This document shows, in pieces, positions 49,864-51,414 of a stretch of DNA of 64,000 bases. The notes beneath the pieces were generated by a model, which saw only the letters and a list, made by a program, of their open reading frames with translations, did no database searches and was not told the DNA's origin. The first letter of the stretch is position 1. Each line of letters opens with the position of its first letter. The stretch comes from Escherichia coli (GTDB lineage: Bacteria > Pseudomonadota > Gammaproteobacteria > Enterobacterales > Enterobacteriaceae). The stretch lies in the NCBI RefSeq assembly GCF_051903065.1, contig NZ_CP178438.1; one strand, given 5' to 3'. The translations under genes and the position numbers were made by a program.

Positions 49864-51414
49864 ATGCAACGTCGTGATTTCTTGAAATATTCCGTCGCAC
49901 TGGGTGTGGCTTCAGCCTTGCCACTGTGGAGCCGTGCAGTCTTTGCGGCGGAACGCCCAACGTTACCGATCCCTGATTTGCTCACGACCGATGCCCGTAA
50001 TCGCATTCAGTTAACTATTGGCGCAGGTCAGTCTACCTTTGGCGAGAAAACTGCAACTACCTGGGGCTATAACGGCAATCTGCTGGGGCCGGCGGTGAAA
50101 TTACAGCGCGGCAAAGCGGTAACGGTTGATATCTATAACCAACTGACGGAAGAGACGACGTTGCACTGGCACGGGCTGGAAGTACCGGGTGAAGTCGACG
50201 GCGGCCCACAGGGAATTATTCCGCCAGGTGGCAAGCGCTCGGTGACGTTGAACGTTGATCAACCTGCCGCTACCTGCTGGTTCCATCCACATCAACATGG
50301 CAAGACCGGGCGACAGGTGGCGATGGGGCTGGCTGGTCTGGTGGTGATTGAAGATGACGAGATCCTGAAATTAATGCTGCCAAAACAGTGGGGTATCGAT
50401 GATGTTCCGGTGATCGTTCAGGATAAGAAATTTAGCGCCGACGGGCAGATTGATTATCAACTGGATGTGATGACCGCCGCCGTGGGCTGGTTTGGCGATA
50501 CGTTGCTGACCAACGGTGCAATCTACCCGCAACACGCTGCCCCGCGTGGTTGGCTGCGCCTGCGTTTGCTCAATGGCTGTAATGCCCGCTCGCTCAATTT
50601 CGCCACCAGCGACAATCGCCCGCTTTATGTGATTGCCAGCGACGGTGGTCTGCTACCTGAACCGGTGAAGGTGAACGAGCTGCCGGTGCTGATGGGCGAG
50701 CGTTTTGAAGTGCTGGTGGAGGTTAACGACAACAAACCCTTTGACCTGGTGACGCTGCCGGTCAGCCAGATGGGGATGGCGATTGCACCGTTTGACAAGC
50801 CGCATCCGGTAATGCGGATTCAGCCGATTGCTATTAGTGCCTCCGGTGCTTTGCCAGACACATTAAGTAGCCTGCCTGCGTTACCTTCGCTGGAAGGGCT
50901 GACGGTACGCAAGCTGCAACTTTCTATGGACCCGATGCTCGATATGATGGGGATGCAGATGCTAATGGAGAAATATGGCGATCAGGCGATGGCCGGAATG
51001 GATCACAGCCAGATGATGGGCCATATGGGGCACGGCAATATGAATCATATGAACCACAGCGGGAAGTTCGATTTCCACCATGCCAATAAAATCAACGGTC
51101 AGGCGTTTGATATGAATAAGCCGATGTTTGCGGCGGCGAAAGGGCAGTACGAACGTTGGGTTATCTCTGGCGTGGGCGACATGATGCTGCATCCGTTCCA
51201 TATTCACGGCACGCAGTTCCGTATCTTGTCAGAAAATGGCAAACCGCCAGCGGCTCATCGCGCGGGCTGGAAAGATACCGTTAAGGTAGAAGGCAATGTC
51301 AGTGAAGTGCTGGTGAAGTTTAATCACGACGCACCGAAAGAACATGCTTATATGGCGCACTGCCATCTGCTGGAGCATGAAGATACGGGGATGATGTTAG
51401 GGTTTACGGTATAA
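49864..51414 (+). CDS. cueO: Multicopper oxidase CueO (Tat-secreted cuprous oxidase)
   Basis: 516-aa product starting [10 protein letters not shown] (twin-arginine signal); copper-binding HxH motifs; methionine-rich insert. Confidence 0.96.

Follow-up and report, generated by a model that had tools for sequence, protein, structure and literature searches.

The window, which is the whole 64,000-nucleotide stretch of E. coli DNA analysed here, carries the multicopper oxidase gene cueO in the gene order acnB-yacL-speD-speE-yacC-cueO-gcd-hpt-can, which is standard in annotated E. coli genomes. Over 401 nt of the gene (50800-51200), the identity to the chromosome of E. coli L73 is 100%, and RefSeq annotates the matching stretch there as cueO. 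Of 5426 complete E. coli genomes, 5424 gave a cueO match in a search with this piece. Plasmid-labelled records account for nine to ten of the matches, and some E. coli genomes hold up to three copies. The features of the locus are listed by window coordinates and strand.

49788..49818, + strand: cueO promoter of the MerR/CueR type, predicted, read by eye from the sequence
49864..51414, + strand: cueO coding sequence, 516 residues plus stop (ORF list, PDB matches, NCBIfam, Pfam, comparison with K-12, annotated synteny)
50926..51057, + strand: Met/His-rich segment, residues 355-398, 14 Met and 5 His in 44 residues (translation, composition tests, ligand check)
50926..51000, + strand: helix half of the segment, residues 355-379, 9 Met and no His; holds M355 and D360 (Cu5) and M358, M362, M364, M368 and M376 (Cu6/Cu7)
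51001..51057, + strand: loop half of the segment, residues 380-398, 5 Met and 5 His; its length varies among genera
51178..51186, + strand: codons of D439-M440-M441; D439 and M441 complete Cu5 with M355 and D360, and the T1 ligand H443 follows

The coding sequence starts at the ATG at 49864, which gives the same N-terminus as the full-length CueO chains in the PDB. An in-frame TTG at 49825 in the mechanical ORF list sits 13 codons 5' of this true start, and automatic longest-ORF calling, with 49825-49863 included, would wrongly lengthen the Tat signal peptide of CueO. The N-terminal Tat signal is the K-12 CueO sequence, and the mature PDB chains begin at residue 29; the Pfam TAT_signal profile scores 21.1 bits on the window protein, slightly below its cutoff of 22.7. 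End to end, the 516-residue product is matched by E. coli CueO chains in the PDB (5b7e, 7f0v, 1kv7 and about 40 further entries). The NCBIfam equivalog NF008205 ('multicopper oxidase CueO') covers residues 1-516 of 516 with 982 bits against a cutoff of 525, and the three multicopper-oxidase domains of Pfam (PF07732, PF00394 and PF07731) all score above their own cutoffs. Compared with the crystallised CueO of E. coli K-12, 513 of 516 residues are the same (99.4%); the three substitutions from K-12 to the window are G61E, S271N and G399S, none of which lies within 355-398. Membership of two other oxidase families was rejected: the FtsP/SufI model (NF008135) gives 299 bits where 581 are required, and the window protein has the full set of copper ligands, while the PcoA/CopA copper-resistance oxidases (TIGR01480) give 117 bits against 479. 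The window protein is E. coli CueO itself, more than a relative, and every feature of the CueO family that can be read from a sequence is found in it. Cuprous oxidase activity and a role in copper tolerance are predicted for it from its 99.4% identity to the characterised enzyme (PMC11494321).

Upstream of the coding sequence, the promoter comprises a -35 element TTGACC (49788-49793) and a -10 element TATGCT (49813-49818) that are separated by a 19-bp spacer, within which lies a perfect dyad, CCTTCCC-N5-GGGAAGG, at 49792-49810. MerR-type architecture with a 19-bp spacer is the established mark of CueR-controlled promoters (copA/cueO), and the predicted assignment to CueR is made on this basis. 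A sigma-70 promoter scan that allowed spacers of 16-18 bp found no site at cueO because the 19-bp spacer exceeds this range. Inside cueO, two terminator-like matches on the minus strand are at chance level. The cueO stop is directly followed, at about 51434-51455, by a hairpin rich in GC (ATGCCCGGA-tctc-TCCGGGCAT); all strains compared have it, and it is likely to terminate transcription between cueO and gcd, which are convergent. The cueO-gcd intergenic region (51415-51615) measures 201 bp in the window and in K-12, against 46 bp in each of L004-L008, five other strains of E. coli. REP-like palindromes, with sub-threshold Rfam matches to naRNA4 and ES036 at 51501-51583, are found in the additional stretch of about 155 bp, and the length difference looks like a polymorphism in which a REP cluster is either present or absent. 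Rfam, scanned permissively over 49000-52000, gave nothing in or near the Met/His-rich segment; the hits were sub-threshold REP-derived matches downstream of cueO and two chance snoRNA matches.

The segment begins at 50926 with the codons atg gac ccg atg ctc gat atg atg. An earlier, sequence-only reading had singled out a 44-residue peptide in the multicopper oxidase, and this peptide matches nt 50926-51057 and residues 355-398 exactly. The end assigned to it, 51065, has to be corrected: it lies 8 nt too far, adds S399 and G400 and halts at the second base of codon 401. Its description as Met-rich is confirmed by composition, with 14 Met in 44 residues (32%) against 15 in the 472 residues elsewhere in CueO (3.2%; Fisher p = 4e-9). 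When CueO is shuffled 20,000 times, the richest 44-residue window holds 6.2 Met on average and 11 at the highest, and no shuffle reaches 14. A search of all six frames of the 64-kb window found no other stop-free stretch of 44 codons with at least eight Met. The peptide had also been called His-rich, which holds for residues 380-398 (5 His in 19 residues; p = 0.001 against the rest) and fails for residues 355-379, where His is absent; relative to 18 His in the 472 residues elsewhere, enrichment over the whole segment 355-398 is marginal (p = 0.04). Tandem Repeats Finder, run on 50850-51150 with a minimum score of 30, found no DNA-level repeat, and the loop's G-H-M / N-H-M periodicity thus exists in E. 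coli at the level of the peptide only.

In cupredoxin domain 3, segment 355-398 constitutes a genuine insertion. That it is an insert had been proposed at the outset and is borne out by in-silico deletion, by gapped alignments of distant oxidases and by matches of the segment that are confined to CueO. With CueO intact, the match to the Pfam profile of domain 3 (Cu-oxidase_2) covers residues 396-516, begins at position 20 of the profile and scores 88.3 bits. Removal in silico of residues 358-407, the deletion that was made experimentally in PMC11494321, gives a score of 98.2 bits and an unbroken match that begins at residue 354 and at position 16 of the profile. The alignments of more distant multicopper oxidases from the PDB (Thermus laccase, CotA, bilirubin oxidases and SufI/FtsP) fall into two pieces and leave out the segment, with the break at about 300-358. 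Searched alone in the PDB, the segment with short flanks matches CueO chains only, namely E. coli CueO and the copper efflux oxidase 8r4f; for the engineered deletion variant 2yxv, the match is confined to 15 flanking residues of the query.

The feature had further been regarded as known and intact, and this view holds good: the segment is that of K-12 CueO, and every published copper ligand within it is present. The ligands of the whole enzyme, checked one site at a time in the window CueO, are as follows.

T1 copper: H443, C500, H505 and M510, all present
Trinuclear cluster: H101, H103, H141, H143, H446, H448, H499 and H501, all present
Cu5: M355, D360, D439 and M441, all present
Cu6: M358 and M362, both present
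Cu7: M364, M368 and M376, all present

The two halves of the segment differ in conservation. CueO sequences from E. coli and Citrobacter, once aligned, show no variation at 19 of the 25 helix-half positions, among them all nine Met and D360, whereas the loop half (380-398) is variable in both sequence and length. Structural work places the Met-rich helix at residues 355 to about 371 only and describes the remaining His-rich part as a flexible loop (PMC6155172); the label 'Met-rich helix region' given to the whole peptide therefore fits the first of these parts and not the second. The helix is ordered in crystals, and the loop (about 370-398) is without density in most of them and resolved only in 3OD3 (PMC6155172). 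Variation within the species was followed in seven E. coli alleles from divergent lineages, whose nucleotide identity to the window is 96.8-98.1%. Their polymorphic codons comprise six synonymous and no non-synonymous ones in the segment, against 88 synonymous and 12 non-synonymous ones in the whole of cueO, and the segment peptide appears to be under strong purifying selection. Residue 399, directly after the segment, is Ser in four of the seven alleles, and the allele of the window is thus a natural variant that occurs commonly. An estimate of S399 frequency by megablast with a 57-nt query (757 of 5297 records exact) was rejected, as it is confounded by synonymous SNPs in neighbouring codons such as 398.

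Several database entries for CueO are irregular. Two CueO-like metagenome proteins, P0007 and P0010 (470 and 471 residues), were considered as natural Met-rich-domain deletions and rejected: their gaps of 45-46 residues sit in cupredoxin domain 2, and the insert is intact. A further protein, P0003, looks E. coli-like in its N-terminal part and Citrobacter-like in its C-terminal part; it may have arisen by recombination or as a chimera during assembly. The cueO of E. coli L37 (L002 1947-3479) is annotated as a pseudogene and is frameshifted with an internal stop; its translation has several hundred garbled central residues, the Met-rich region among them, and normal CueO on either side, which looks more like a low-quality assembly than real decay.

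We are highly confident that the segment is the Met-rich insert of periplasmic, Tat-exported E. coli CueO and forms a lid over the type-1 copper, with the recruiter-to-Cu5 mechanism that has been proposed for it. Protein identity, ligand intactness, the nature of the insert and the conservation pattern are the basis of this reading, against which nothing in the sequence speaks, and the mechanism would carry over from experiments published for an enzyme with the same segment 355-398. M355 and D360 of the insert, with D439 and M441 of the domain-3 core, would make up the labile Cu5 site. Periplasmic Cu+ bound at Cu5 would be oxidised to Cu2+ and give one electron to the T1 copper, from which it would pass to the trinuclear cluster, and O2 would be reduced to water. 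The other Met residues of the helix and the flexible Met/His loop may act as a collective soft-ligand surface for transient capture of Cu+, and this surface may help to strip Cu+ from strong chelators and hand it over to Cu5. The same lid would sterically shut out bulky phenolic substrates, and because of this exclusion CueO would be a poor laccase until Cu2+ fills Cu5 or the lid is removed.

Published work on the enzyme bears on each of these steps. Mutagenesis from 2024 identified Cu5 as the sole substrate site, at which at least two ligands must be removed to abolish activity, and found Cu6 and Cu7 to be functionally negligible (PMC11494321). Deletion of the lid increases phenol oxidase activity 33-fold and reduces the oxidation of strongly chelated Cu+ to 10-20%, free, electrogenerated Cu+ is oxidised normally by the domain-deleted enzyme, and the many Met residues have been proposed as a collective, transient recruiter of Cu+ from strongly chelated forms (PMC11494321). 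It is in-vitro assays with artificial chelators that suggest this recruitment role. Movement of the helix and the loop uncovers T1 (PMC6155172), and the insert region limits the access of phenolic substrates to the T1 copper and carries extra copper sites (PMC11494321, PMC6155172). The sequence-only reading had spoken of additional Cu(I) sites that regulate substrate access. Its extra sites and the limited access of phenols stand, but Cu6 and Cu7 are negligible as functional sites (PMC11494321); this reading is supported as the classical view, essentially correct but no longer complete. In vivo, E. coli remains protected from copper under aerobic conditions when its CueO lacks the Met-rich domain, which is dispensable for copper resistance under the conditions tested (PMC11494321). 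Under anaerobic copper stress, catalytic activity matters and the Met-rich domain does not, and the domain-less CueO still protects (PMC12510620).

Other explanations have been weighed against this one. That the Met/His richness is an accident of composition or the by-product of another DNA feature, such as an antisense ORF or a tandem repeat, and arose without selection on the protein, deserves next to no credence. A mechanical 81-aa ORF with a GTG start does run antisense to the segment (50962-51207, - strand), but it was dismissed, with no support as a gene. The Met density of the segment is reached by none of the 20,000 shuffles, no tandem DNA repeat and no RNA family was found in the segment, its polymorphism in the cueO frame is synonymous only, and copper binding by its residues is visible in crystal structures of the identical peptide. 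Very improbable, and largely refuted by PMC11494321, is the classical proposal that Cu5 and T1 are fed from Cu6 and Cu7 as indispensable substrate or relay sites for Cu(I). Both sites are occupied (Cu6 by M358 and M362, Cu7 by M364, M368 and M376) in the Cu(I)-soaked crystal PDB 3nt0 (cited in PMC11494321), and all five ligands are kept in the window CueO and in Citrobacter. Activity losses were reported in earlier mutant studies. The earlier papers disagreed on Cu6/Cu7 (summarised in PMC11494321). This occupancy, however, is seen only in an inactive, T1-less crystal, and single and double Cu6/Cu7 mutants match the wild type in cuprous oxidase activity, be it in solution, on electrodes or in vivo (PMC11494321).

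We consider it unlikely that the Met-rich domain acts mainly outside catalysis, be it as a docking or hand-over surface for CusF or CopA, or in the self-loading of apo-CueO with its four coppers when copper is scarce. Both alternatives were raised by the authors of PMC11494321. Deletion of the domain barely alters copper resistance in vivo, and its selective value is thus unexplained, while the absence of non-synonymous changes in seven alleles and the invariance, as far as Citrobacter, of 19 of 25 helix-half positions with all nine Met and D360 point to strong purifying selection and show that the domain matters for something. A role in partner interaction, however, predicts a bigger in-vivo deletion defect than is seen (PMC11494321), and the in-vitro effects scale with chelator strength and Met content, which fits recruitment directly (PMC11494321, PMC12041951). 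Recruitment of Cu+ to Cu5 is the reading that we prefer. It is exceedingly doubtful that the S399/G399 difference, possibly together with E61 and N271, has a measurable effect on how the loop moves and, through it, on laccase activity or on how efficiently Cu+ is recruited in different E. coli lineages, or, more broadly, that conservation of the domain means an undiscovered role such as partner hand-over or self-maturation. The question touched here, namely why a domain that is dispensable in current copper assays is so strictly conserved, concerns the field as a whole and is not peculiar to the window sequence.

The Met-rich insert of CueO is already known, intact and unremarkable in this ordinary chromosomal copy. 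As a textbook feature of a heavily studied enzyme at an ordinary E. coli locus, it has little discovery value; it is useful as an annotation anchor for the window, in which it fixes organism, locus and reading frame.

Among the relatives of CueO, the multicopper oxidases of the PcoA/CopA type (TIGR01480) are likewise periplasmic, serve copper resistance and have Met-rich regions too. Their Met-rich region is not known to be homologous to the CueO segment in position or sequence. FtsP/SufI, the laccase of Thermus thermophilus, CotA and the bilirubin oxidases share the fold of three cupredoxin domains with CueO and lack the insert, and the segment alone had no match to any of them in the PDB search; the T1 and trinuclear ligands are common to CueO and these enzymes, FtsP/SufI excepted. 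The nearest counterpart is E. coli K-12 CueO (YacK; PDB 1KV7, 1N68, 3OD3, 3NT0 and 5B7E, among others), which has the same locus, the same segment 355-398 and the same copper ligands and agrees in 513 of 516 residues, the differences G61E, S271N and G399S all lying outside the segment. Citrobacter CueO (519-544 residues) is 83-87% identical overall to the window CueO, and its loop half is 3 to 28 residues longer, with extra G-N-M-N-H / G-N-M-G-like units. CueO of Hafnia alvei (PDB 8R4F) also has a Met-rich domain over T1, of which the helix part aligns with the segment (E = 3e-10, query residues 4-50) and the loop part does not. This domain is significantly larger than that of E. coli and the enzyme oxidises chelated Cu+ better, which favours the recruiter role (PMC12041951).
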